Sequence record: MT446392.1
Length of the DNA stretch: 64,000 nt
DNA from: Escherichia virus TH15
Direction: 5' to 3' (one strand)
Shown here piece after piece: positions 3,483-56,966 of the stretch. The first letter of the stretch is position 1, and each line of letters opens with the position of its first letter. The translations under genes and the position numbers were made by a program. The notes beneath the pieces are model-generated. The model was not told where the DNA came from. It ran no database searches and saw only the letters and a list, made by a program, of their open reading frames with translations.

Positions 3483-4004
3483 TTAATCCCTCGCGTATAC
3501 GTATGAACGCAATTTATCTGCACATCGGCTCCAGTTACCGACGATAGTTTTTGTGTAAACTTTTGTCATTGTCTTTCTTACTGGGGCCGGAGGTGGGTCT
3601 GTCTCGTTGCCTGCCCGACTATTACTACCACCAGAGTTCCCTGTGTCTCCTCCAGAGCTCTCTTCTTGAAAGTCATAGGTTAGGGTTACTGTGTATGAAA
3701 AGACCTTCTGGAGGCTCGCTGGGGCCCTCCAGAGATACAATTGAGTGCTCTTATCCACAGGAAGTTCTTCCCATGAAGCAGCAGTTTTGAATTCATCATC
3801 AAGCCGATATTTAAGTGCATCATCTGCAAATCCGAACACGGATTCATAAACACCATAAAGATGATTGCCCTCAACATTAACGCCAGGGGTGGCCTCATAT
3901 TCAGTTATATTTATTTCGACTAATGTTTCGTTTGTTTCTAATTGAGCTGTAAACGTAACATCGATTGAGGCTCCTTCCATGGAGTCTCCTAGGTCAGTGC
4001 TCAT
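3483..4004 (-). CDS. 5.1: hypothetical protein, gp5.1-like by position
   Basis: ORF 3483..4064; start placed at internal Met 21 (4004) because the longer start overlaps gene 5; Ser/Gly/Pro-rich C-terminus. Confidence 0.4.
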   Translation of the reverse strand: MSTDLGDSMEGASIDVTFTAQLETNETLVEINITEYEATPGVNVEGNHLYGVYESVFGFADDALKYRLDDEFKTAASWEELPVDKSTQLYLWRAPASLQKVFSYTVTLTYDFQEESSGGDTGNSGGSNSRAGNETDPPPAPVRKTMTKVYTKTIVGNWSRCADKLRSYVYARD

Positions 4005-4014
4005 TGGGGTTATA

Positions 4015-5757
4015 TTAGCCAATGTCAATCCTCGAACCATCAATAGTATATTGTCCAGATGCAATAGAACTCATTGAAGCCATAGTCTCGGACCAAGCAC
4101 CTGCACAAGTCCAAGATACAGTACCATTTACAGTCCAGTTTAAATTACCATTAGTCGTGCGAGTTTCATTACCTTCTACTAAGGTAGTCGCATCACCCTT
4201 AACAGTAACATCAGCATTTCCTTCAACAATAACAGTAACGTTGCCTTTAACTCTGAGTGTTCCATTACCTTCTACAGTTTTCTCTTCGTTACCACGAATA
4301 TGGATGGTTTCGTTTCCATCGGTCTGACGACGAACGTTAGCCATATTGTAATAGGTTTCATCACCGCCAACGTTGACTTTATTATTACCACCGACATAAG
4401 TACTCGAATCGCCCTGGGTCATATAATAACCATCGGCTACCGTCTTCGAAGTCTTACGACCATCTGGTGCAACTTCCTCGTAGGAGCCAGTCGGGTGAAT
4501 CAGTCGATAACGTTCTTGCCCTGGAGTGTTATCGAATTCCTGAATATGTCCGCCTTCGGTTTGCATTGTCTGCACATAAGGATATTCGCCCTTGTAACTT
4601 GATTCTGGCTCTTTAAATAGAATCCTCGTATCTTCTGGAGTCCACGGGTCGGCCGGGTCAGAATTTGTAGGGGCCGCAAAGGTTTGAATCATCCTATATG
4701 AACGCCCTTTAAATTCCATTTCTTTAGGGGCCATTATACCATATGATTCCATATTACCGGTAAGGATAATCATTGATACCCTTGATGCACGCCCTTTAGT
4801 TTGGTTAAACCATACTGAATTACGAGCTTCCTCAAATGCCTTTTTATAATCGCCTATTAACATTGCACTAAGCATTCCACGGAATTTAGCAAGTCCACCT
4901 AATCCCATTTGGAAAGCCATGTTTTCAAGAGCCATTTGTCTCGAACGGTTTTCTTTATTGTAAACCGGACCTACAACACTATGCCTACCTATATCACTTT
5001 GTACTTTCTTAAGGTCTTCCTGGAATAATTTGGAAGCCTCGTCCATTGATATTGCGCCAGGGTTACCTTTAACTTCACGGCCTATTTGATTAGATAATAT
5101 TTTGTTTATCTGATTCATATCTCTAATAGGTTGTGGTGTAATAAGGTGGCCAATCCCGACAGTCGGATAACCTTCGGTGTCCCAATATACTTTCAGACGA
5201 AGCCCCTCATCACGGTGAAGCATATTTTCAATTGTGAAATTAGGGTTATCGTCTGGCTTAACCTGACTTAAATCAAGACCATCAGGGTTAATACCCAAAT
5301 CAAGGTTTGAATCCTGGATTACGTTTGAAGTGGCATCATAACCAACTTCACCCCCTCGGTTAAGCGCTGCAGCATCATTACCGACATAAAGTGGGTATTG
5401 TCCTGTGGGGTCAGAGAAACCTTCGTTAGGATTTGCTTTTTGCCTTGAGGCTGAACCGTATGTACCAATGACAAGACCGTTGAGCTTCCACTTGTCTAAA
5501 AAGTGACCATACACCTGAGTCCCTGGTACCATACCAGTCATGGCAGTTTGAATTCCAGAAACCGACGCAGATGATGTTGGCATCAGCACAGACATCCATG
5601 GTAGGTCTTCAGTTCTGATACCTTTTACAGGCCCTTGTGATTTCTCATATGGATGCATACCCCATACACGAACACGGACTCTACCTTGCTGAAGCGGGTC
5701 CATTCGGTCTTCAACCACACCGACGAACCAGCTTACACTATCTGACATATTAATCAT
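4015..5757 (-). CDS. 5: baseplate hub / tail lysozyme gp5
   Basis: 580 aa; central lysozyme-like segment (GYPTVGIGHLI, cf. T4 lysozyme [10 protein letters not shown]) and C-terminal VxGxxTxxVEGN beta-helix repeats. Confidence 0.85.
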   Translation of the reverse strand: MINMSDSVSWFVGVVEDRMDPLQQGRVRVRVWGMHPYEKSQGPVKGIRTEDLPWMSVLMPTSSASVSGIQTAMTGMVPGTQVYGHFLDKWKLNGLVIGTYGSASRQKANPNEGFSDPTGQYPLYVGNDAAALNRGGEVGYDATSNVIQDSNLDLGINPDGLDLSQVKPDDNPNFTIENMLHRDEGLRLKVYWDTEGYPTVGIGHLITPQPIRDMNQINKILSNQIGREVKGNPGAISMDEASKLFQEDLKKVQSDIGRHSVVGPVYNKENRSRQMALENMAFQMGLGGLAKFRGMLSAMLIGDYKKAFEEARNSVWFNQTKGRASRVSMIILTGNMESYGIMAPKEMEFKGRSYRMIQTFAAPTNSDPADPWTPEDTRILFKEPESSYKGEYPYVQTMQTEGGHIQEFDNTPGQERYRLIHPTGSYEEVAPDGRKTSKTVADGYYMTQGDSSTYVGGNNKVNVGGDETYYNMANVRRQTDGNETIHIRGNEEKTVEGNGTLRVKGNVTVIVEGNADVTVKGDATTLVEGNETRTTNGNLNWTVNGTVSWTCAGAWSETMASMSSIASGQYTIDGSRIDIG

Positions 5758-21739: not shown

Positions 21740-22495
21740 ATGAATTATCTAAAAATATATGAATCTTTAATAGTATCTGCTATTAAAAGACCTCTTACAC
21801 AAGGATACACCGAAAAACATCATATTTTACCGAAATCGATGGGTGGTAATGATTCTATTGATAATTTAGTTACCCTTACCGCCCGTGAACATTTTATTGC
21901 ACACTTATTATTGGCAAGAATTTTTAAGAATCGCGAAATGTGGTCCGCTGCATATATGATGGCTTCAACAAGTCTAACTAACTCGGATAGACATAGATGC
22001 TCGTCACATTTATATGAATTATTGCGTAAACAAGCGTCGGTATATAATTCAGGTGAAAATTCTCCAAATTGGGGAATAAAACGTTCTGAAGAAACACGAT
22101 TAAAAATGTCAATTTCAAAAATGGGTATCAGGAATCCAATGTACGGTATTCCACAATGTTTGGAACACTCTCATAAAATTAGCCTTGGTGTTACCGAAGC
22201 TTTTAAAAATCCAGAAATGAAAGAACGCCACCGTCAAAGTGTTTCTGGAGAGAATAATGGGTTTTATGGAAAAAAACATTCCGAAAAAAGTTTGGAAAAA
22301 CAGCGGAATACAAAACGGAAAGGATTTCCTTGGGACAATTATTTGGAATTGTACCCAATTTGGGTTTCATTAAATTGCCCCAAGCATCCAACATTCACAA
22401 ATGAACTTGTTAAATTGGGATACCCCAAAAAGAAGCTTGTTCGAATAGTGGAAGAGTTTAAAAATGAATATATTCGAAATGCTACGCATAGATGA
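21740..22495 (+). CDS. HNH homing endonuclease
   Basis: 251 aa; N-terminal [11 protein letters not shown]...[20 protein letters not shown] is the typical HNH core; NUMOD-like basic repeats at the C-terminus; overlaps start of e by 32 nt. Confidence 0.7.
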
Positions 22496-39557: not shown

Positions 39558-40634
39558 ATGCAAGATTATGGCCATTGGTCTGTATTTGAAGAAGTTGACA
39601 TTAAAAATTATATTGGGTTTGTGTACGTGATTACATTTGAAGACGGTCGCAAATATGTTGGTGCTAAAAAGATTTGGAAACGAATCAAAGCAGCTCCATG
39701 CACATTCAAGCGCGGTCCCAAAAAAGGTTTTGAAGAATCTGATTGGAAAACCTACACATCCTCATCAAATGAGTTAAACTCAATTCTGGAAAATGGTATA
39801 AAGCCAAAAGAAATGATTATCATGGGTTGGTATCCAACTTGGGGTAAAACACTTATGGCTGAAATGGAAATGCAACTAGCTAATGATGTTTTGCGAGACC
39901 CAATGTGGCTCAACAAACAGATTGGTGGTCATTTCAACCCCAACTGTTTTGATGATTTGACTCAAGATGATATTGCTCGATGGATTGAATTTGACAAAGG
40001 CAATGAACATGTTAATTGGCCTGTGATGTATAAAATGGGTCAGAAAACTAAATATGTTAAACCTGACGAAGTTGAAAATTATTTGGCGAAGGGTTGGCAG
40101 TTTGGGCGTTCTCGTTCAGAAAAGCATGGAATAATTACCAATTGTTCTTCGTATAAAATTTGGGATTACCAGACTGATACGGAAGTTGAAGTCGTTAACC
40201 AAACCGAGTTCGCGCAAGAAAATGAAATCTCTGCAAGTCATTTAACCAGACTGTTACAGGGTGATTTAGACCTAATTCAGGAACGTTGGGGCTTACCTCC
40301 GACCATTGCACGACAAAGATACAAATTTGCTTTGGCTGATGATAGTGTAAAATTTATATCGAACGCTGATGTTGAACAATATTTTGGTGTTGGTCGCGGT
40401 GGTTGTGCAAAAATATTAAAAGATGGAAAAATTAAAAAGTTGGTCGTGGAAGACAAAAAATCGCATAAAGCAAAACTTGCAACCATGGATTTAGTCAAAA
40501 CAGTTCGACATGAAAAAGTTTCACAAATGGAATTAAACTTTTTCAAAGATATGGTTAATCCGCTATCTCAAACTGAAAGAGATAACTTAACAGTATGGCT
40601 CGAAAGCTATATACAGTATTTAAAAAACAACTGA
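39558..40634 (+). CDS. possible GIY-YIG-type (Seg-like) endonuclease
   Basis: 358 aa; N-terminal YIGFVYVITFEDGRKYVGAKK resembles the GIY-(10 aa)-YIG module; remainder unassigned. Confidence 0.35.
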   Translation: MQDYGHWSVFEEVDIKNYIGFVYVITFEDGRKYVGAKKIWKRIKAAPCTFKRGPKKGFEESDWKTYTSSSNELNSILENGIKPKEMIIMGWYPTWGKTLMAEMEMQLANDVLRDPMWLNKQIGGHFNPNCFDDLTQDDIARWIEFDKGNEHVNWPVMYKMGQKTKYVKPDEVENYLAKGWQFGRSRSEKHGIITNCSSYKIWDYQTDTEVEVVNQTEFAQENEISASHLTRLLQGDLDLIQERWGLPPTIARQRYKFALADDSVKFISNADVEQYFGVGRGGCAKILKDGKIKKLVVEDKKSHKAKLATMDLVKTVRHEKVSQMELNFFKDMVNPLSQTERDNLTVWLESYIQYLKNN

Positions 40635-44774: not shown

Positions 44775-44958
44775 ACCTTTTAAACGGCTTCTTGTTGGAG
44801 CCGCTTTCAGACTTCGCTCATATGGTAATATCTGTATTAAGCAGACTGAAACCGAATACAAAATGATTGGCCAGTATTCTGACGGTATTTTTCAGATTGA
44901 GCCAGTAGCGAAGGTGTGGGTTGATTCACATCAACTTAAGAAATGGTGGCAAAGGTGA
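44758..44958 (+). CDS. hypothetical small protein
   Basis: 66-aa ORF. Confidence 0.4.
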   Translation: MALVNKPFKRLLVGAAFRLRSYGNICIKQTETEYKMIGQYSDGIFQIEPVAKVWVDSHQLKKWWQR

Positions 44959-45214
44959 TAACATGGACGGCGGGCTAATGAAAGACGAACATCCAGATTT
45001 TTAAGAGGTCATATGAATGACGAGTACGAAAAAGTTTAAGAGACTACGTTATGATGAATTCGACGGATTTTGATAAGATTAAATCTGACAAAAATGAGAT
45101 GATGCTTCAATTTGAAGCCGCTCGTATTAAAGCAGAAAATGAAGGTACTATTACCTATAAACCCATCAAGTTCAAGTCTTCTCATGAACCTCTGTATGGT
45201 GTATTAATTGGAAA

Positions 45215-45281: not shown

Positions 45282-45425
45282 ATGGAATTATTTTTAGGAT
45301 ATGTCGTGTTATTCATGGCATTCTACACATTCACACGAACTTGTTGGATAGGATTCTTTTCTACTCCTGACGGGTTCATCTCATTAATTTTATTTTGCAT
45401 TGCGATAACGGCGCTTGGCTTATGA
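45282..45425 (+). CDS. small hydrophobic peptide (47 aa, below the ORF-track cutoff)
   Basis: Hand-translated MELFLGYVVLFMAFYTF...; strong SD gaggagaa; stop overlaps gene 47 start (ATGA). Confidence 0.4.
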   Translation: MELFLGYVVLFMAFYTFTRTCWIGFFSTPDGFISLILFCIAITALGL

Positions 45426-46441
45426 AAATTTTAAATTTAGGTGATTGGCACTTAGGTGTCAAAGCTGACGACCCATGGGCTCAAAACATTCAACGCGATG
45501 GTATTTTACAGGCGATTGCATATTCCAAGGCAAATGGGATTAAAGTCTGGATTCAATATGGTGATATTTTTGACGTCCGTAAGGCCGTAACGCATAAGAC
45601 GATGGAATTCAGCCGCGAGATTATGGAACTCCTTCGTGAAGCAGGAATTACTATGCACACGATAGTCGGGAACCATGACATGAATCTGAAGAATAAGATT
45701 CATCCTAATGCTATCACTGAACTCCTGAATAAGTATGACCATGTTAAAATCTACGACAAGCCAACGACTGTTGATTTTGACGGTTGTCAGATTGATATGA
45801 TTCCATGGATGTGTGACGAGAACGCGACTGACATTCATCAACACATCAAAACTTCTGGTGCCGAATATTGCATCGGTCATTGGGAATTAACTGGGTTTTA
45901 TTTCTATAAAGGATTGAAATCTCACGGACTTGAGCCTGATTTCCTTAAGAAGTACAAGCAAGTTTGGTCTGGTCACTTTCACACCATTTCAGAAGCTGCA
46001 AACGTTAAGTACATCGGTACACCATGGACATTAACAGCAGGTGATGAGAATGACCCGCGCGGATTCTGGGAATTTGATACCGAAACCGAAGAGATGAAAT
46101 TTATTCCGAATGAAACCACCTGGCATCGGAAGATTTTCTATCCAAACGAAACTATTAACTACGACGACTTCAAAGACTTATCAGTCCGTGTTATTGTAGA
46201 AAAAGTCGATAAAGACCTGACCAAGTTCGAATCTGAATTAGAAAAGCGTGTGCATGAATTGCGTGTTGTCAATAAGGTTGATAACAGTGTTGATACATCA
46301 GATTCCGAAGAAGAGTTAGACATAAAACGCTTAACTGATATGATGGCAGAATATATCGATGCATTACCTGATGCCAATGAGAAAGAATCAAAAGCTCTCA
46401 AAGCATTGGCCAACAAATTATATCTTGAGGTGCAACCGTGA
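45422..46441 (+). CDS. 47: recombination nuclease subunit gp47 (Mre11/SbcD-like)
   Basis: Start at Met 10 of ORF 45395..46441 gives 339 aa as in T4 gp47; N-terminal LNLGDWHLG metallophosphoesterase motif. Confidence 0.85.
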   Translation: MKILNLGDWHLGVKADDPWAQNIQRDGILQAIAYSKANGIKVWIQYGDIFDVRKAVTHKTMEFSREIMELLREAGITMHTIVGNHDMNLKNKIHPNAITELLNKYDHVKIYDKPTTVDFDGCQIDMIPWMCDENATDIHQHIKTSGAEYCIGHWELTGFYFYKGLKSHGLEPDFLKKYKQVWSGHFHTISEAANVKYIGTPWTLTAGDENDPRGFWEFDTETEEMKFIPNETTWHRKIFYPNETINYDDFKDLSVRVIVEKVDKDLTKFESELEKRVHELRVVNKVDNSVDTSDSEEELDIKRLTDMMAEYIDALPDANEKESKALKALANKLYLEVQP

Positions 46442-46701
46442 GACTTTATGATTTTAATGAAGCGGGACTTGAACATATCCGCGAATGTGATGTGGTTGAC
46501 GATGATAACCAACCGAATACGATTAAGTATTGGTTTGAAGCCATTACTGACCGGGAAACCGGCCAACTTATCAAAGTCTATGTAGTCACTGATTGGGCTG
46601 TAGAATTTAGCTTTAATGTAATGGAAGATGATACTCCAGAGACATTAATTCATATGGCTGAATCATGTATCAAGGATGCTTATTACGATGAAGACTTTTA
46701 A
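46438..46701 (+). CDS. hypothetical acidic small protein
   Basis: 87-aa ORF between genes 47 and 46. Confidence 0.45.
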   Translation: MRLYDFNEAGLEHIRECDVVDDDNQPNTIKYWFEAITDRETGQLIKVYVVTDWAVEFSFNVMEDDTPETLIHMAESCIKDAYYDEDF

Positions 46702-48370
46702 GCTAAAGAAAGTTATCTATAAAAATATCATGTCAGTTGGAGCGCAAGCAATTACGGTTCAACTTGATAAAGTCCAGAAAACTCTGGTGACCGGTAAGAA
46801 CGGTGCAGGTAAATCAACCTTCCTTGAAGCCGTTACATTTGCATTGTTTGGTAAGCCTTTTCGTGATGTTAAGAAAGGGCAGTTGATTAACTCGAGCAAC
46901 AAAAAAGATATGCTCGTTGAATTGTGGATGGAATATGATGGAAAAGAATACTATATCAAGCGTGGGCAAAAACCCAATGTTTTTGAAATCTCTTGTGGCG
47001 GTGAACGTCTTGATGAATCTGCCAGCAGTAAAGACTTCCAAGCAGAATTTGAACAGCTTATCGGAATGTCATACGCCAGTTTCAAACAGATTGTCGTGCT
47101 CGGCACAGCTGGATATACCCCTTTCATGGGCCTATCCACTCCTGCAAGAAGAAAACTTGTCGAAGACCTGTTAGAGGTTTCTGTACTGGCGGATATGGAT
47201 AAGCTGAACAAATCTCTTATCCGTGAAGTCAACAGTCAAATCCAGGTGATTGATGTTCAGCATGATGGTGTTGTGCAACAGATTAAAATCTACCAGGACA
47301 ACGTTGAAAAGCAGAAAAAATTATCAGGTGATAATCTGCTGCGGTTGCAAACGATGTATGATGATTTGGCTTCAGAAGCTCGTGATATCAAATCAACGAT
47401 TGATGAAGCAACGACAAGATTGACCGAGATTATTTTGGGCGAAGACCCTGAACAGGAACTGACGAAAGTCAAGCAAGAATCGTTCCTGATTAAATCGAAA
47501 ATCGATAGCTTCCGTAAAGTAATCGGTTTGTACGAGAAAGGCGGTTGTTGCCAAACGTGTTTGAGTCAATTGTCGCCAGGAGACTCCATAGTCCCCAGGA
47601 TTGAGACAAAGATTGAAGAGTATAATCGTGAGTCTGATAGCCATAAAGCTCTCCAGGCCTCCATTCAGGAGCGATTTGATGCGTACGCTGAAGCAAGACA
47701 AAACCAACGTACAATAGCTCAAGAGATTCAAACTAAGAAACAAACATTAATCCAGACTGTGGATAAAGCTAAAAAGGTTAAGACGTTAATTGAACAAGCT
47801 AAGTCTGAATTCATTGACCATGCCGATGATATTAAAACGCTTCAAGACCAGCTTGATAAAATAGTCAAACAGAAATCTGACCTTGTTATGGAAAAATATC
47901 AACGTGGTATCTTAACTGATATGTTGAAAGATTCTGGAATCAAAGGCGCGATTATTAAGAAATATATTCCTATCTTTAATAAGCAAATTAATGCTTATCT
48001 GAAAGTTATGGAAGCTGATTATAGTTTTACGCTTGATGAAGAATTCAACGAAACAATTAAATCTCGTGGGCGTGAAGACTTTAGCTATGCATCATTTAGC
48101 CAGGGTGAAAAAGCTCGTATCGATATTGCATTGTTGTTTACATGGCGTGATATTGCTGCGAAAGTATCTGGTGTGCAAATTAGTACGTTGATTCTGGATG
48201 AGGTCATGGATTCAGCCACTGACGCCGAAGGCATCAAAGCTATCCAGGCAATTATCAATAAATTAGAAGGTCAAAACGTGTTTATCATTAGCCATCGTGA
48301 ACACGACCCAGAAGCATATGGGCAGCATCTTCAAATGAAAAAAGTTGGTCGATTTACTGTTCTGGAATGA
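46688..48370 (+). CDS. 46: recombination nuclease ATPase subunit gp46 (Rad50/SbcC-like)
   Basis: Start at Met 5 of ORF 46676..48370 gives 560 aa as in T4 gp46; Walker A GKNGAGKST; closely parallels T4 gp46. Confidence 0.9.
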   Translation: MKTFKLKKVIYKNIMSVGAQAITVQLDKVQKTLVTGKNGAGKSTFLEAVTFALFGKPFRDVKKGQLINSSNKKDMLVELWMEYDGKEYYIKRGQKPNVFEISCGGERLDESASSKDFQAEFEQLIGMSYASFKQIVVLGTAGYTPFMGLSTPARRKLVEDLLEVSVLADMDKLNKSLIREVNSQIQVIDVQHDGVVQQIKIYQDNVEKQKKLSGDNLLRLQTMYDDLASEARDIKSTIDEATTRLTEIILGEDPEQELTKVKQESFLIKSKIDSFRKVIGLYEKGGCCQTCLSQLSPGDSIVPRIETKIEEYNRESDSHKALQASIQERFDAYAEARQNQRTIAQEIQTKKQTLIQTVDKAKKVKTLIEQAKSEFIDHADDIKTLQDQLDKIVKQKSDLVMEKYQRGILTDMLKDSGIKGAIIKKYIPIFNKQINAYLKVMEADYSFTLDEEFNETIKSRGREDFSYASFSQGEKARIDIALLFTWRDIAAKVSGVQISTLILDEVMDSATDAEGIKAIQAIINKLEGQNVFIISHREHDPEAYGQHLQMKKVGRFTVLE

Positions 48371-48375
48371 GCCTC

Positions 48376-49092
48376 TTATTGAGGCTTCATTTTGCAGTTA
48401 TCAAAATGCCAACGTTTCATATTAGCTGGTGTACCGACTACATTACAGTGTGGACACTGAATTTTGGGGTCCACCTTTTTCTTCCGGTTTGGATTGGATT
48501 TGCAGAATTGTCGGTGAGTGGATATAACACACTTTTTACCTTCAATACCACAAAATTCACAAGTTAAAATTTCATGTTTAGCTTGTTTTAATCCTACTGA
48601 AATTTTTTGCTTTCGTTCTTCTGAAATAGTATGAACAACCTTGTTTGGACCTTTGGAACAGTTATCAAAATGCCAACGATTCATATTGCCAACGAGACCG
48701 GTTTTTCCACAATGTGGACATTCAACTCTCGGTTTTAATTTGGCAGATTCTGACATTTTCTTTCTGGTTTCATCGGAGAAAATTTTATTTTGTTGAGCTT
48801 CCAAGTTTTTACGACGAAGCCATCCAAATAATTTGTTTTTGCTTCTGTCGGTGTTTGGTGCAGAAACTGTCATCATGCGTGCGGCATAGACCAAAGAAGC
48901 ATTATTTGGATGCATTTTGACCAACAGTTGATGACAAACGAAATGTTCCTCGGGAGTTAAATCAACAAGATTTGAAGCGTCGTCTGCCCCACCCATACAA
49001 CGGGGTATAATGTGATGACTTTCAGAGTATGTGGTTAATTTGCGATTCAATGCTCTGCTAATAAGCTTTTGGTAAATGATGTTATAATTCAT
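48376..49092 (-). CDS. HNH homing endonuclease with repeated C-terminal zinc-finger-like motifs
   Basis: Start at Met 68 of minus ORF 48376..49293: MNYNIIYQKLISRA...ESHHIIPRCMGG is the typical HNH start; three CPHCG...NMxRWHFDNC-type repeats follow. Confidence 0.7.
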   Translation of the reverse strand: MNYNIIYQKLISRALNRKLTTYSESHHIIPRCMGGADDASNLVDLTPEEHFVCHQLLVKMHPNNASLVYAARMMTVSAPNTDRSKNKLFGWLRRKNLEAQQNKIFSDETRKKMSESAKLKPRVECPHCGKTGLVGNMNRWHFDNCSKGPNKVVHTISEERKQKISVGLKQAKHEILTCEFCGIEGKKCVISTHRQFCKSNPNRKKKVDPKIQCPHCNVVGTPANMKRWHFDNCKMKPQ

Positions 49093-49329
49093 ATCAGACC
49101 CTTGTTTGATACTGCAACGGATAATATTATTTATGAGCAATTTTTTAACCGGGCAGCATTTACTGGCTGTCCCCGAAATTAAACGATATGTGTTAGTTAA
49201 TACCTTTTCGAAAGATGAACACCTAGTTACTGAACGTGACTTACAAAACGCTTTCGGTGAAGAATATGTTAAAATAATCGCGAACAGACACAAAGCCTGG
49301 TTCGCATATGAATACTTTGATTAATTGAA

Positions 49330-49755
49330 TTGAATAGAGAGAATATTATGAACAACGTAACTGCTAAAGATATCCAAGTTAAAACCATCCGCACCGACGC
49401 TAACCCACATAACCAAAACCGCATCCGTAAATCCTGGGTCCTGGCATGTGATGAAGTATCTGCCACCCGTCTGAAATCACTTCCTCAAGAAGTTAAATTT
49501 ATGTTGTATGGTGTTATTGATACTGATGTATCTGATAAGTGGATTGAACTGATGCAACGTCATTACACCGAATCTCTGGCAGCTGGTGCTAAACTGGTTA
49601 TCGACCGTGACGGCTCCGAACGTCTAGAAGATGATTACTGTGTTGACTTCGATGACCACCTGGTCCAAGCTGGTTCTATTATTGCTGCGCAACTTCCAGA
49701 GTATATTGAATCTCTTCCGGAAGCTATCCGCAAACAAATGGCAGTTGTTGCGTGA
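49330..49755 (+). CDS. hypothetical protein (position corresponds to T4 rpbA/45.2)
   Basis: 141-aa ORF upstream of the gene 45 cluster. Confidence 0.4.
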   Translation: MNRENIMNNVTAKDIQVKTIRTDANPHNQNRIRKSWVLACDEVSATRLKSLPQEVKFMLYGVIDTDVSDKWIELMQRHYTESLAAGAKLVIDRDGSERLEDDYCVDFDDHLVQAGSIIAAQLPEYIESLPEAIRKQMAVVA

Positions 49756-50639
49756 ATTTGATTTATAAAATAACCTTTATAACAAGGGAACAAAATAACG
49801 AATTCCCTTGTTATTATATTGGTTCAAAGGTTGATGCGACATTTAACGGTCAAAATATTCTCGACAAAAATAATAAAATTTATACAGGTTCTCCGAATTC
49901 AAAATACACTAAGCTGTATAATGAATTGATTGATAGAGGTGACTATATTGTTACTATCATTGGAGAAACAAAGCAGGACCCAAGAAAAATAGAAAATATT
50001 TTTCAAATGTCAGTTAAAGCTGTAACCAATGAGAAGTACTTTAATAAAACGTATGCTCACGACCAAAGCCGGTATGATGCTCCTGGATATGCTCCATACC
50101 GAAACTTGAAAACAGGTAAAGTCGTTAAATTGCATCCATCTGAACTTACATCTGATTATGTTGGTGTTCGTAAAGACTGCTCAATTTCGGATAAGCACAT
50201 TCAAGCAATTAAAGACTTTCAAAAAGAATATTGGACTGCCGAAGCTCGACAAGCAAGGTCTATTGAAGTCAAAAATCGTTATAAAGATGCCGAGTATGCT
50301 TTAAAATTCAAAGTTATAATGAATACATCTGAAGTATACGAAAAATATTTAAAATCAATTACTGAATATTGGAATAATTCAGATAATAGAATAAAGGCTT
50401 CAAAACGAGCAACTGAAAGAAATGCTAGTCCTGAGTTTAAAGAAAAATTTAGGAAATCCAAAGCAAGGGGAACCTGGTTGCAGTATGAAGATGAACTTAA
50501 AACATTGTGGAATGCTTTAGGTCAACCGGGGTATATTAAGTTTAGAAAACACGCCATTGAACATGGGTTTAATGATGAAAATTATCAGGGTGCAATCCGG
50601 TCCTGGTCAAATTATTATGTTAATAGGAAAATGAAATGA
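49752..50639 (+). CDS. GIY-YIG homing endonuclease (Seg-like)
   Basis: 295 aa; N-terminal LIYKITFITREQNNEFPCYYIGSK is a GIY-(13 aa)-YIG module; lysine-rich repeats follow. Confidence 0.6.
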   Translation: MNLIYKITFITREQNNEFPCYYIGSKVDATFNGQNILDKNNKIYTGSPNSKYTKLYNELIDRGDYIVTIIGETKQDPRKIENIFQMSVKAVTNEKYFNKTYAHDQSRYDAPGYAPYRNLKTGKVVKLHPSELTSDYVGVRKDCSISDKHIQAIKDFQKEYWTAEARQARSIEVKNRYKDAEYALKFKVIMNTSEVYEKYLKSITEYWNNSDNRIKASKRATERNASPEFKEKFRKSKARGTWLQYEDELKTLWNALGQPGYIKFRKHAIEHGFNDENYQGAIRSWSNYYVNRKMK

Positions 50640-51331
50640 AATTTAGTCGTGACACCATCGCAGTTCTGAAAAACTTCACCTCCATCTACTCTGGCATTAT
50701 GCTTAAGCCGGGTAATACCATCTTGACTCGTTCCGTAACTGGAGCGTCATATGGCGAAGCCGAAATCAATGATACAATTGACTTTGAAGCTGCGATTTAT
50801 GACCTGAACGGCTTCTTAAGTATCCTGGGCCTGGTAACTGACCAAGCTGAAGTATCTCTAGCTGAAGACGCATCAAACATCATTATCAAAGACCAACGTT
50901 CAACGATTCACTGGCCTGCAGCAGACCCGAGCACTATCGTGTTCCCTGCTAAGAAGATTCCTTTCCCGGTAGCTAAGGTTATCTTCGACCTGAAAGGCAG
51001 TGACCTGCAGCAGCTTCTGCGTGTGGCTGGTGGTTTGTCTCTGGATACTTTTGCAATCACCAACAAAGACGGTAAGATTGTTATCCATGGTTATAACCAG
51101 CTCGAAGATAAAGAATTAGCGCGTCCATTGTATTCCCTGGTGTGTGGTGATTACGAAGGTGATGCAGCGTTTAAATTTATCATTAACAAACTGAACATGA
51201 AAATGATTCCGGCTGATTACCGTGTTATGCTTTGGGCGAAAGATGATAAATTTGCTACGAAGTTTGAAGGCACACAAGCAAGTTATGTGATTGCAATGGA
51301 ACAAGGCTCTAGCCACGAATTCCAAGATTAA
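50636..51331 (+). CDS. 45: sliding clamp gp45
   Basis: 231 aa; MKFSRDTIAVLKNFTSIYSGIMLKPG...IHWPAADPSTIVFP... closely parallels T4 gp45. Confidence 0.9.
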   Translation: MKFSRDTIAVLKNFTSIYSGIMLKPGNTILTRSVTGASYGEAEINDTIDFEAAIYDLNGFLSILGLVTDQAEVSLAEDASNIIIKDQRSTIHWPAADPSTIVFPAKKIPFPVAKVIFDLKGSDLQQLLRVAGGLSLDTFAITNKDGKIVIHGYNQLEDKELARPLYSLVCGDYEGDAAFKFIINKLNMKMIPADYRVMLWAKDDKFATKFEGTQASYVIAMEQGSSHEFQD

Positions 51332-53285: not shown

Positions 53286-53504
53286 ATGAATACTGAAATT
53301 AAACAAGAATTGATGAATGACATTAAAGTTGCTTATGGATTGACTGAAGACCAGACCGTATTTGACCTTGATGAAGATTTACAGCTAGAATTCCAAAAAG
53401 AATTTGAAAGGGCTGTTAATCCAAACTGCAAAGTTTTCCAAGCCGTTATTAAAACTATTACATCCGAAGGCGTAAGGTATACTCGTCATGCGGTAGAAAT
53501 TTAA
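53286..53504 (+). CDS. hypothetical small protein
   Basis: Start at Met 23 of ORF 53220..53504, right after the regA stop. Confidence 0.4.
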   Translation: MNTEIKQELMNDIKVAYGLTEDQTVFDLDEDLQLEFQKEFERAVNPNCKVFQAVIKTITSEGVRYTRHAVEI

Positions 53505-53509
53505 AGCAA

Positions 53510-53529
53510 AGGGACTTCGGTCCCTTTTG
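53510..53529 (+). terminator. UUCG-loop hairpin / weak terminator upstream of gene 43
   Basis: AGGGAC-TTCG-GTCCCT followed by TTTGT; then TAGTATAAT -10-like element at 53531-53538. Confidence 0.45.
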
Positions 53530-53589
53530 TAGTATAATAGCGTCAAGTCATAAAACAAAAGTCAATCACTCGACTATAAAGGAAACCAA

Positions 53590-55113
53590 ATGCAAGAATT
53601 TTATTTAACTATCGAACAAATCGGTGACAACCTGCTCGAACGGTACATTGACAAGAATGGTCATGAACGTGTTCGTGAAATCCCTTATGCTCCATGCTTG
53701 TTTATGCATGCTCGCGAAGACCAGGCTGCAAAGTATACAGACATCTATAATAAAGGTTGTGTGAAAAAAGAATTCGATTCCATGCGTGATGCATCCCAGT
53801 GGATGAAGCGCATGAACGATATGGGCCTCGAAGCTATGGGTATGGACGATTTCAAACTCGCGTACCTGAGCGACCGTTACCCACATGAAATCAAATACGA
53901 TTCAAGTAAAATCCGTGTGGCTAACTTCGATATCGAGGTGACATCTCCTGATGGGTTCCCTGAGCCGTCTGAAGCACGTCACCCTATCGATGCCCTGACG
54001 CACTATGATTCGGTAGACGATAAATTCTATGTCTTTGACCTTTTGAGCTCGCCATACGCCACTGTGGAGCAATGGTCTATTGATATTGCTGCTAAGCTGC
54101 AGGAAGATGGCGGTGATGAAGTCCCCGAAGAAATCCTGGAAAAAATTGTTTATATGGCTTTCGATTCAGAAGAAGAAATGCTCCAGCAGTATTTGGTATT
54201 CTGGAACGAGAAAACTCCGGTTATGTTAACTGGTTGGAACATCGAGAAATTTGATATTCCGTATATCTACAACCGCATTAAAAATGTATTTGGTGAAGCT
54301 ACGGCCAAACGTCTGAGCCCACATCGTCGTACAAAAGTTAAAGTCATTAACAACGGCTTTGGTGAAGAACAAGAAATCATTCAGATTCTGGGTATCTCTG
54401 TTCTGGATTATCTGGACCTGTACAAAAAGTTCAGCTTCACAAACCAACCGTCTTACTCGTTGGACTATGTTGCGGAATCTGAGCTGGGTGTTGGTAAACT
54501 TCCGTATGATGGCCCGATTTCTAAATTACGTGAATCCAATCACCAGCGATACATCAGCTATAACATCATTGACGTTTATCGTGTTGTGCAGATTGACCGT
54601 AAGCGACAGTTCATTAACCTGAGCCAATCGATGGGTTATTATGCAAAGATGCAGATTCAGTCTGTATTCAGCCCAATCAAAACTTGGGATGCGATTATCT
54701 TTAACAGTCTGAAGACTCAAAACAAGGTTATCCCTGAAACCAAATCACATGTTCGTCAATCGTTCCCTGGTGCATTTGTTAAGGAACCGATTCCGAACGC
54801 ATACAAATATGTAATGAGCTGTGACTTAACATCTCTGTATCCGAGCATCATCCGACAGATTAACATCAGTCCAGAAACGATTGCCGGGTCATTTGCACCA
54901 GCCCAGATGCACGAATACATCGCAGGAACTGCTGACCGTCCATCTGATGCATTTAGTTGTGCGCCAAATGGTATGATGTATTTTAAAGATGTTGCGGGTA
55001 TTATTCCGACAGAAGTTGAGAAAGTTTTTAATCAACGAAAAACCGAAAAGAAAAAGATGTTGGCGGCACAACGTAATAGTGAATTGATTAAAGAAATTTT
55101 ACATGGAAAATAA
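53590..55113 (+). CDS. 43: DNA polymerase gp43, N-terminal segment (exonuclease and N-terminal domains)
   Basis: 507-aa ORF ending in a stop; contains B-family polymerase N-terminal and 3'-5' exonuclease regions (e.g. FDIEV); continues in ORF 55791..56966. Confidence 0.85.
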   Translation: MQEFYLTIEQIGDNLLERYIDKNGHERVREIPYAPCLFMHAREDQAAKYTDIYNKGCVKKEFDSMRDASQWMKRMNDMGLEAMGMDDFKLAYLSDRYPHEIKYDSSKIRVANFDIEVTSPDGFPEPSEARHPIDALTHYDSVDDKFYVFDLLSSPYATVEQWSIDIAAKLQEDGGDEVPEEILEKIVYMAFDSEEEMLQQYLVFWNEKTPVMLTGWNIEKFDIPYIYNRIKNVFGEATAKRLSPHRRTKVKVINNGFGEEQEIIQILGISVLDYLDLYKKFSFTNQPSYSLDYVAESELGVGKLPYDGPISKLRESNHQRYISYNIIDVYRVVQIDRKRQFINLSQSMGYYAKMQIQSVFSPIKTWDAIIFNSLKTQNKVIPETKSHVRQSFPGAFVKEPIPNAYKYVMSCDLTSLYPSIIRQINISPETIAGSFAPAQMHEYIAGTADRPSDAFSCAPNGMMYFKDVAGIIPTEVEKVFNQRKTEKKKMLAAQRNSELIKEILHGK

Positions 55114-55801
55114 ATTGCATTTTGTGTATAAAATTACAAATAACATTAATGGTAAAATTTACATCGGTGTTCACAGCACCGATGATATTAATGATGGATA
55201 TTTGGGCAAAGGTACTTTAATTCAGAAAGCTATTAAAAAATATGGGAAATCTAATTTTAAAAAGGAAATTTTGGAATTTTTCGAGGACCGCACTTCAGCC
55301 TTTGACAAAGAGCGAGAGCTTGTAACCAGAGAATTTGTCAGTTTGACAACAAACTATAATTTAAAAACTGGCGGCGAAGGTGGTGCAATGTATGGTAAAA
55401 CCAATCCGATGTATGGTCGAACATATAGGAAGTCGGAATCAGAGAAGACCCAAATTTCGTTGCGATTTAAAAATGTTCCCAAAACCAACCAGCACAAACA
55501 AAACCTATCCAATTCATTACTCGGTAAACCCAGACCGGACATCGCTGAGAGACAGCGCGGATTGTTACCCTGGAATGTTAATTCTATTCGCAATAACAAA
55601 ACCAGACTAAGAAAATTCGCCGACCTGGATATTATTTTCGATTATTGGTCTAGTCATAAATGTGGTGTTAAAGCATTAGCGAATTGGTATCAACTGGCGA
55701 CGTATAATGAATTAGCATCCGTTATGCGATTCATTAAAAAGTATGGTGACCCGCGACTGAATGGTGATTGGAAAAAATTTAAGGCTGACTATGAATATTG
55801 A
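55103..55801 (+). CDS. GIY-YIG homing endonuclease inserted within gene 43
   Basis: 232 aa; HFVYKITNNINGKIYIGVHS is a GIY-(10 aa)-YIG module; MYGKTNPMYGRT repeats; overlaps both polymerase ORFs by about 11 nt. Confidence 0.75.
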   Translation: MENKLHFVYKITNNINGKIYIGVHSTDDINDGYLGKGTLIQKAIKKYGKSNFKKEILEFFEDRTSAFDKERELVTREFVSLTTNYNLKTGGEGGAMYGKTNPMYGRTYRKSESEKTQISLRFKNVPKTNQHKQNLSNSLLGKPRPDIAERQRGLLPWNVNSIRNNKTRLRKFADLDIIFDYWSSHKCGVKALANWYQLATYNELASVMRFIKKYGDPRLNGDWKKFKADYEY

Positions 55802-56966
55802 TTATAATGCTGATTTTACAGAAGAACAAATCGAATACTTAAAAACTTTGTCTAAAGATGAATTGGAACACCATTTATACAATTCTCAAATGGCTGAAGT
55901 AGCTGCAAACACCGCGCAGATTAACCGTAAACTGCTTATCAATAGCTGTTATGGTGCTCTGGGCAATATCTGGTTCCGTTACTTTGACCTGCGAAATGCA
56001 ACTGCGATTACATCTTTCGGGCAACTTGCATTGCAGTGGATTGAGCGTAAAGTTAACGAATACTTCGATAGTGTTTGTGGTACAAGTGGTGAGACTTACG
56101 TATTCTATGGCGATACTGACTCCATTTATATCCAGTGCGATAACCTGATTAAAAAGGTTGGTGGTGAATCTAAATTCCGCGATACAAACCACCTGGTTGA
56201 CTTCATGGACAAGTTTGCAAAAGACCGTCTGGAACCGGCAATTGATAAAGCTTTCCGTGAACTGGCCGAATACATGAACAATAAACAGCACCTTATGTTT
56301 ATGGACCGTGAAGCGATTGCATGTCCTCCGCTGGGTTCTAAAGGCGTGGGTGGATTCTGGACGGCGAAGAAGCGTTATGCGTTGAACGTGTATGATATGG
56401 AAGGCACACGATATGCTGTTCCGAAACTGAAAATTATGGGTCTGGAAACTCAAAAGTCGAGCACTCCAAAAGCATGTCAGAAAGCTCTGAAAGAATGTAT
56501 CCGTCGCATGCTGCAAGAAGGTGAAGAATCTCTGCAGACATACTTCAAGGAATTCAATAAGGAATTTAATGAGCTTAACTACATGACCATCGCAGGTGTA
56601 TCATCGGTTAACAACATCCAGAAATATAATGAGGGCGGTTTCCCTGGATTTAAGTGCCCGGCTCATATCAAAGGTGTGCTTGCATATATGCGTGCAACTA
56701 AAGGGCTGAAGACTGTTCCGCAAATCATGGAAGGGGAAAAGGTGTATGTGCTTCCTCTTAAAGTTGGTAATCCGTTTGGCGAAACCGTGATTGCGTGGCC
56801 ATCAGGGATTGAACTCCCGATTGAAATTCGTGACCAAGTCTTGCAGTGGATGGACTACAACACACTGTTCCAGAAGACTTTTGTTAAGCCATTGACAGGG
56901 TTCTCTGAAGCAGCTAAGGTTGATTACGAGAAAAAAGCATCTCTTTTTGATATGTTTGATTTTTAA
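55791..56966 (+). CDS. 43: DNA polymerase gp43, C-terminal segment (palm/thumb, motif C YGDTDS)
   Basis: Start at Met 11 of ORF 55761..56966; INSCYGALGN and YGDTDSIY polymerase motifs. Confidence 0.85.
   Translation: MNIDYNADFTEEQIEYLKTLSKDELEHHLYNSQMAEVAANTAQINRKLLINSCYGALGNIWFRYFDLRNATAITSFGQLALQWIERKVNEYFDSVCGTSGETYVFYGDTDSIYIQCDNLIKKVGGESKFRDTNHLVDFMDKFAKDRLEPAIDKAFRELAEYMNNKQHLMFMDREAIACPPLGSKGVGGFWTAKKRYALNVYDMEGTRYAVPKLKIMGLETQKSSTPKACQKALKECIRRMLQEGEESLQTYFKEFNKEFNELNYMTIAGVSSVNNIQKYNEGGFPGFKCPAHIKGVLAYMRATKGLKTVPQIMEGEKVYVLPLKVGNPFGETVIAWPSGIELPIEIRDQVLQWMDYNTLFQKTFVKPLTGFSEAAKVDYEKKASLFDMFDF

Follow-up and report, generated by a model that had tools for sequence, protein, structure and literature searches.

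The 64,000-nucleotide stretch of Escherichia virus TH15 analyzed here (sequence record MT446392.1; hereafter the window) is that of a T4-like Gaprivervirus, whose nearest relatives are vB_EcoM_VR26 and VR7 (96-97% identity by megablast). Its plus-strand replication and recombination operon is of the T4 type and, in each of the two gaps that flank 45.2-rpbA, very probably harbors a free-standing homing endonuclease gene (HEG) of the T4 mob/seg kind, the two being independent of each other. According to the listing of open reading frames (ORFs) and family scans, the gene order is 47, 46.2, 46, an HNH endonuclease gene on the minus strand, 45.2, rpbA, a GIY-YIG-type endonuclease gene, 45, and 44 (Table 1). 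The preliminary description of this DNA, which placed endonuclease genes between genes 46 and 45 with one of them antisense, is therefore correct: the HNH gene occupies the 46/45.2 gap on the minus strand, and the GIY-YIG gene occupies the rpbA/45 gap on the plus strand. The 46/45.2 gap measures only 34 bp in VR7, as opposed to 762 bp in the window, and the rpbA/45 gap of VR7, which is 30 bp long, is filled in the window by the GIY-YIG gene.

Endonuclease-free alleles, by comparison with which the preliminary description proposed to define the insertion sites, exist at both sites. Both genes are missing from VR7, VR25, SP18, and UPEC07; the GIY-YIG gene is present alone in VR26, and the HNH gene is present alone in P8, P479, PSD2001, DK-13, and MN01. 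Each gene thus has the location of a free-standing HEG, i.e., an intergenic gap between conserved genes that is HEG-free in close relatives. When a 6-kb query was compared with 50,697 phage genomes, no single record covered more than 87% of it, and none of these records carries both genes at comparable identity. The exact sequence of the 295-amino-acid (aa) GIY-YIG-type protein is not on record in public assemblies, in which a 98% identical relative occurs on HNH-free contigs. Orthologs of both genes, with conserved lengths and 55-76% protein identity, occupy these two sites in further genera as well (Tequatrovirus-like and Mosigvirus genomes). The two-gene arrangement is therefore already present in public genomes, whereas the particular combination of alleles in the window is not.

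The HNH gene shows the footprint of recent homing. Approximately 150 informative sites in gene 46 upstream of position 48148 are of the VR7/VR26 type, all 51 informative sites between 48175 and 48369 and all 7 at 49136-49165 are of the P8 type, and the VR type resumes from 49294. The breakpoints are thus located at 48148-48175 and 49165-49294, and they delimit a P8-type patch of approximately 1 kb in a VR7-type backbone, with the HNH gene within it. The patch is 96-100% identical to P8. The 3'-terminal 196-bp block of gene 46 is perfectly linked to the HNH gene across eight Gaprivervirus genomes with differing backbones (three with the gene and five without), and the first ~33 nt of gene 45.2 (49133-49165) are likewise a P8-type variant that travels with it. 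The breakpoints and the linked gene 46 block are the signs of co-conversion of flanking sequence with the HNH gene. This pattern would be expected of a cleavage-resistant gene 46 allele that is always carried together with the HNH gene, with crossovers occurring in the identical sequence just upstream. The C-terminus of the HNH-linked gp46 shares the segments ISTL, DAEGIK, IIN, NVF, and DEVM with gp46 of T4 and Mosigvirus, and the HNH-free Gaprivervirus alleles do not have them. These shared residues suggest that the block entered from a different genus along with the HNH gene.

The GIY-YIG gene shows only a short linked variant, with changes in 8 of the 21 nt that open gene 45, and this variant is not universal. 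It is present in the window, VR26, and Mosigvirus G2285, and it is absent from Salmonella phage F13076. Codons 3-5 of gene 45 were accordingly rejected as the site of a universal "immune" polymorphism, since F13076 has the gene together with the empty-type codons.

The minus-strand ORF of the HNH gene spans 48376-49293; because the close homologs are all 237 to 239 aa long and start with MNY, the gene is assigned the ATG at 49092 as its start codon, which gives a product of 238 aa. The gene is convergent with gene 46 and ends 5 nt past the gene 46 stop codon, with its TAA at 48378..48376. The protein has 3960 homologs, and its AlphaFold2 model has a predicted local distance difference test (pLDDT) score of 92. 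The motif ESHHIIP...GGADDASNLVDLTPEEH can be aligned with the HNH motif of McrA, and Glu24, His26, His27, Pro30, Asn41, His50, and His54 are invariant in 51 homologs. In the model, two strands (residues 24-27 and 42-45) and a helix (residues 47-60), all with pLDDT above 90, take the beta-beta-alpha arrangement that characterizes the HNH (beta-beta-alpha-metal) nucleases. The ratio of non-synonymous to synonymous substitution rates (dN/dS) relative to the P8 allele is 0.13, on small counts of 16 synonymous and 9 non-synonymous changes, which reflects purifying selection. The 238-aa minus-strand HNH endonuclease of the preliminary description is thus substantiated by the ORF, by the phrog_655 match, and by a motif intact in all its catalytic residues; by that measure and by dN/dS, it does not look like an inactive remnant. 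It had also been counted as one of two non-baseplate genes on the minus strand. It is indeed the sole family-supported minus-strand ORF of at least 120 aa outside the baseplate block, the family scans of the window giving no support to any further such ORF, and the second gene was not identified. A predicted stem-loop lies directly after the gene 46 stop codon and encloses the HNH stop codon, with RNA folding energies of -18.9 kcal/mol (z -4.05) on the plus strand and -14.1 kcal/mol (z -3.47) on the minus strand. No such stem-loop is predicted at the empty site of VR7 (z 0.05), and the structure is absent from the empty alleles.

The C-terminal part of the HNH protein contains the three C-x2-C...H-x3-C repeats that had been noticed earlier. 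A regular-expression search and the codon listing place these C-x2-C-x12/13-H-x3-C units at residues 125-145, 178-197, and 213-233, and each is predicted in the model as a hairpin followed by a helix. None of the Pfam zinc-finger models scores over its cut-off on these fingers, the best being Zn_ribbon_9 with 20.9 bits against a required 29.1. The direct DNA repeats of about 25 bp that were described near 48395 and 48660 do exist and are 29 nt long, with 28 of 29 positions identical; however, they are not a separate element, because they are the image of the protein repeat. The two copies are spaced 264 nt apart, in frame, and encode NM(K/N)RWHFDNC of fingers 3 and 1, and similar identity between fingers recurs in the orthologs (28/33 nt in both P8 and G2285). 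A role as a regulatory or recombination element was rejected on these grounds. The finger consensus CPHCG..G..GNM.RWHFDNC (C-x2-C-x12-H-x3-C) is common to the HNH proteins and to GIY-YIG relatives of the 295-aa ORF, and the number of fingers ranges from one to at least four across the homologs.

The GIY-YIG gene is joined to the operon by overlapping each of its neighbors by 4 nt (rpbA in GTGA, gene 45 in ATGA), and its GTG start is backed by the homolog N-termini, MNL[IV]Y. An exhaustive profile search gave a family of approximately 290 clusters at 50% identity. In an alignment of 56 members, Tyr5, Tyr22, Gly24, Lys26, Tyr44, Ser47, Glu81, and Asn98 are invariant, so that the order GIY...YIG...E...N is kept, and the domain has the alpha/beta fold of GIY-YIG nucleases; the residue-to-residue mapping onto I-TevI is inferred. 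Alignment with the SegE-like ORF of the window by hhalign gave an E value of 6e-4 and a probability of 28%. The SegE_GIY-YIG family PF19835 matches 4 of the 56 relatives at E values of 0.002-0.01, and NUMOD3 occurs in 45 of them and is absent from the 295-aa protein. The consensus of the family ends in the same CCHC finger as the HNH protein, and the window subfamily has an all-helical C-terminus instead. The dN/dS relative to VR26 is 0.07, again on small counts (10 synonymous and 3 non-synonymous changes), and points to purifying selection. The plus-strand GIY-YIG endonuclease announced at 49752 therefore stands, on fold and motif evidence and not through a match to a curated family, and its intact family-invariant residues and low dN/dS are not those expected of an inactive remnant. 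The copy in VR26 (3525-4412) is annotated from an internal ATG as a 210-aa product, omitting the whole GIY-YIG catalytic domain, and the full 295-aa frame with its GTG start is intact. The G2285 record gives the homolog (1443-2332) as two overlapping ORFs; this copy is apparently frameshifted and exemplifies decay at the same site.

With regard to mechanism, each enzyme would recognize its own locus in the HEG-free form carried by a co-infecting relative and would nick or cut it. The HNH enzyme would combine a beta-beta-alpha-metal head with three C2HC fingers for DNA recognition, and by analogy with T4 MobE it would probably leave a nick; the GIY-YIG enzyme, like the T4 Seg enzymes, would probably break both strands and leave a 2-nt 3' overhang. 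The lesion would be repaired from the HEG-carrying genome by gp46/47 and UvsX, by which the HEG and its flanking sequence would be copied in. The carrier genome itself would be protected because the target region is replaced or disrupted: the HNH carrier has replacements in the 3'-terminal 196 bp of gene 46, in the gap, and in the first codons of 45.2, and the GIY-YIG carrier has an altered rpbA/45 junction and altered codons 3-5 in gene 45. The GIY-YIG gene would be expressed within the rpbA-45 message via the overlapping stop and start codons. The HNH gene would need a promoter of its own because it is antisense to the operon, and a candidate is located just upstream.

The two insertions also alter the promoters of the operon. 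In T4 and in the empty Gaprivervirus alleles, the 46/45.2 gap contains a MotA-box middle-promoter motif (ATGCTTTAA-N-TATAAT), and in the rpbA/45 gap, T4 has a second MotA motif, of which VR7 keeps the MotA box without a matching -10 element. The HNH insertion removes the first motif, and the GIY-YIG insertion destroys the MotA box of the second (TGCTT to TGCGT). Two MotA-like motifs fall inside the 888-bp GIY-YIG gene itself, among 9 hits in the 64 kb where 4.1 are expected, and they are found at the same offsets in VR26 and in the 62%-identical homolog of G2285. These middle-promoter-like motifs may replace the displaced MotA promoter, and if they function, the GIY-YIG gene would therefore be costly to delete. 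This pattern of lost and embedded promoters matches the documented cases of mobE/nrdB and segG/gene 32 (PMC2790892, PMC2988022). A scan for terminators gave nothing relevant. At 49093-49135, the HNH alleles have lost the AGAGG ribosome-binding sequence that precedes 45.2 in the empty alleles, and the first codons read MSNF as opposed to MADF; through these two changes, the insertion may affect how 45.2 is translated.

Several results weigh against the presence of two functional homing endonucleases in these gaps. In the domain of the 295-aa protein, no invariant or near-invariant Arg corresponding to the canonical catalytic residue after the YIG strand was observed among the 56 relatives, in which Lys26, Tyr44, and Ser47 are invariant instead. 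The protein has no sequence match in Pfam or the PDB, and the Pfam families GIY-YIG (PF01541) and SegE_GIY-YIG (PF19835) are not hit even at an E value of 10; with profiles built from 6 and 56 sequences of the family, the catalytic domain again found no match in Pfam or the PDB, and only the linker of the relatives matched the DNA-binding domain of I-TevI. Some copies of the gene decay, as the split homolog in G2285 indicates. The candidate HNH promoter has 9 of 12 consensus matches, which is at chance level in this AT-rich region (7 such sequences found and 9.6 expected), and no exact late promoter (TATAAATA) is located near either gene. The conservation of the MotA-like motifs within the GIY-YIG gene may reflect coding constraint, because they overlap the conserved YALKF and NALG. 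The window is mosaic in the T4-like manner elsewhere as well, its affinity switching among VR26, VR7, and P8, e.g., at 44900-45100 and 53300-53700, so that a recombinant patch alone is no proof of endonuclease-driven transfer. No literature on HEGs at the 46/45.2 or rpbA/45 sites was found.

It is conceivable, but unlikely, that one or both enzymes are inactive and that the genes are relics, retained because a deletion would remove signals of their essential neighbors, namely, the gene 45 promoters and ribosome site that lie within the GIY-YIG gene and the altered 45.2 start beside the HNH gene. The two MotA-like motifs and the Shine-Dalgarno sequence of gene 45 within the GIY-YIG gene, with the native promoter gone, would agree with such retention, as would the lack of the canonical Arg and the persistence of the G2285 homolog despite its breakage into two ORFs, and embedded promoters favor retention according to a review (PMC2988022). 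However, the dN/dS values of 0.07 and 0.13 hold over the whole ORFs and all family-invariant residues are intact, which argues that the proteins are still under selection, and the sharp breakpoints of the HNH patch and its near identity to P8 point to recent transfer into a VR7-type backbone. Slightly less probable still is that the nucleases serve mainly as weapons or helpers of the phage, which exclude the markers of competitors or drive the amplification of nearby genes, and do not simply spread as selfish elements. Marker exclusion by T4 HEGs is documented (PMC2988022), as is SegB-driven amplification of anti-defense loci (PMC13096335), and all competitors have the replication and recombination genes in which the targets would lie. 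Nevertheless, most Gaprivervirus genomes do without either gene, and sequence cannot separate such a function from plain homing, in which the same mechanism cuts the allele of a rival. T4-like phages recombine at very high rates, and the affinity switches elsewhere in the window would accord with ordinary homologous recombination between co-infecting phages, without involvement of the nucleases, as the source of the patch and of the presence/absence pattern; this is very improbable, since the patch tightly brackets the HNH gene (with margins of ~200 bp and 33-160 bp), the gene 46 block follows the gene perfectly on differing backbones, and the same genes occupy the same sites in three genera at 55-76% protein identity, as would be expected of site-specific elements.

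Two homing endonuclease genes of the mob/seg kind can be compared with their T4 counterparts. The HNH gene resembles MobE and the other mob genes in the order of its domains, with HNH at the N-terminus and a lineage-specific DNA-binding region at the C-terminus, in its intergenic location between conserved genes, and in inheritance with co-conversion of flanking polymorphisms (PMC2790892, PMC2988022); the annotation of VR7 labels a paralog "similar to RB43 MobE." Unlike the T4 mob genes, which are all co-oriented with their neighbors and mostly have no promoter of their own, the HNH gene is antisense, its protein ends in three C-x2-C-x12-H-x3-C fingers, and the 46/45.2 site is empty in T4. The only T4 HEG that runs against the surrounding orientation is segD, a GIY-YIG gene between 23 and 24 for which the provision of a promoter is unclear (PMC2988022); the HNH gene differs from it in nuclease family and site, and, besides being under purifying selection, it has at least a candidate promoter. 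The 295-aa protein differs from I-TevI and the T4 Seg proteins (especially SegE) in that it has neither a Pfam GIY-YIG/SegE match nor an equivalent of Arg27, in an extra hairpin (residues ~27-47) after the YIG strand, and in the C-terminus, which in the window subfamily is all-helical instead of having NUMOD3 and a zinc finger. The same layout (46, antisense HNH, 45.2, rpbA, GIY-YIG, 45) is found in F13076 (genes 0127/0130) and G2285 (00063/00059-60), in which the HNH proteins match that of the window in length and in their three fingers and the genes have the same stop/start overlaps, whereas the proteins are only 55-63% identical and are annotated as "homing endonuclease" or "hypothetical protein," and the GIY-YIG gene of G2285 is split.

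Selfish endonuclease genes that are wedged between essential genes and drag their flanks along are textbook material and ordinary for T-even phages. The four allele states (both genes, either one, or neither) among phages that are 91-97% identical, together with the mapped breakpoints and the linked "immune" gene 46 allele, amount to a clean natural experiment, and because of them the mapping of target sites and homing crosses should be straightforward. An HEG that is antisense and yet under purifying selection bears on how such genes are expressed. Two protein modules are of possible engineering interest, the C2HC finger array on a putative nickase and the GIY-YIG domain lacking the Arg. We consider it possible, though doubtful, that the HNH protein is a natural "zinc-finger nickase," with an HNH head and three modular DNA-reading C2HC fingers, and that the 295-aa protein represents an active, Arg-independent GIY-YIG lineage of ~290 clusters. 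If so, the same finger module, which no curated family covers, would have been shuffled between HNH and GIY-YIG homing endonucleases.

Table 1. Features of the two endonuclease loci and of the other endonuclease genes in the window
Feature	Position	Strand	Evidence or remark
Gene 47	45395-46441	+	ORF listing/family scan
46.2	46438-46701	+	ORF listing/family scan
Gene 46	46676-48370	+	ORF listing/family scan
Gene 46 3' end, HNH-linked allele	48175..48370	+	51 informative sites and 13 amino-acid changes in 66 codons relative to the HNH-free allele
Stem-loop directly after gene 46 stop, enclosing HNH stop codon	48364..48397		RNA fold
HNH endonuclease	49092..48376	-	phrog_655 "homing endonuclease," 2.7e-68
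HNH catalytic motif, residues 24-54, ESHHIIPRCMGGADDASNLVDLTPEEHFVCH	48931..49023	-	
Putative zinc finger 1, residues 125-145, CPHCGKTGLVGNMNRWHFDNC	48658..48720	-	Model: beta hairpin 122-133 and helix 134-144
Putative zinc finger 2, residues 178-197, CEFCGIEGKKCVISTHRQFC	48502..48561	-	Regular expression and model
Putative zinc finger 3, residues 213-233, CPHCNVVGTPANMKRWHFDNC	48394..48456	-	C213, C216, H229, and C233 invariant in 51 homologs
Direct repeat copy 1, coding for finger 3 helix	48395..48423		Repeat search, 29 nt
Direct repeat copy 2, coding for finger 1 helix	48659..48687		28/29 identical
Candidate HNH promoter, sigma-70-like TTAAAA-16-TATTAT overlapping a near-late-promoter sequence, CATAAATA	49121..49148	-	Inside imported patch; overlaps 45.2 start codon
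Gene 45.2, 63 aa	49133-49324	+	Pfam Gp45_2, 2e-23
rpbA	49330-49755	+	Pfam Phage_RpbA, 4.3e-44; TGA stop overlaps GTG start of GIY-YIG gene
GIY-YIG-type endonuclease, 295 aa	49752-50639	+	phrog_7504, 6.4e-15; GIY-YIG fold
GIY-YIG catalytic domain, residues 1-~105, LIY...YIG...E81...N98	49752..50066	+	
All-helical C-terminal region, residues ~147-290, presumed DNA-binding	50190..50621	+	Model helices, pLDDT 56-80
MotA-box-like motif inside GIY-YIG gene, TGCTTTA-N11-TATAAT	50297..50320	+	339 nt upstream of gene 45 ATG
Second MotA-box-like motif inside GIY-YIG gene, TGCTTTA-N12-TATATT	50513..50537	+	123 nt upstream of gene 45 ATG
Gene 45	50636-51331	+	ORF listing/family scan
Gene 45 5' end, GIY-YIG-linked variant	50636..50656	+	Codons 3-5 TTT AGT CGT as opposed to TTC TCT AAA; K5R (4 filled and 4 empty alleles)
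Genes 44, 62, and regA	Beyond gene 45 in operon	+	ORF listing/family scan
HNH endonuclease ORF overlapping e	21740-22495		phrog_655 HNH, 1.2e-54
GIY-YIG endonuclease ORF	39558-40634		Pfam SegE_GIY-YIG, 3e-33
GIY-YIG endonuclease ORF splitting gene 43	55103-55801		Pfam GIY-YIG, 1e-5

All five endonuclease ORFs that the preliminary description counted in the window are supported (Table 1), and its label of a hot-spot for the region between 46 and 45 is fair, as a third site, 45/44, is occupied in VR20 by a phrog_314 homing endonuclease. This 196-aa ORF of VR20 (4475-5065) is annotated as hypothetical (phrog_314, 2.1e-17), and the corresponding site in the window is empty. Gene 43 (53590-56966) consists of ORFs of 507 aa and 401 aa that are separated by a 232-aa GIY-YIG gene, which also matches phrog_314 (1.4e-45). 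At the DNA level, this insert has no match among the 50,697 phage genomes, in which coverage ends at 55-57%, and a gene 43 product of 507 aa is likewise encoded on one metagenome contig. The second phrog_655 HNH gene of the window encodes a protein of 251 aa that is 36% identical to the minus-strand HNH protein, and the gene extends 32 nt into the beginning of the lysozyme gene e. In this protein, NUMOD3-like repeats take the place of the three fingers at the C-terminus.

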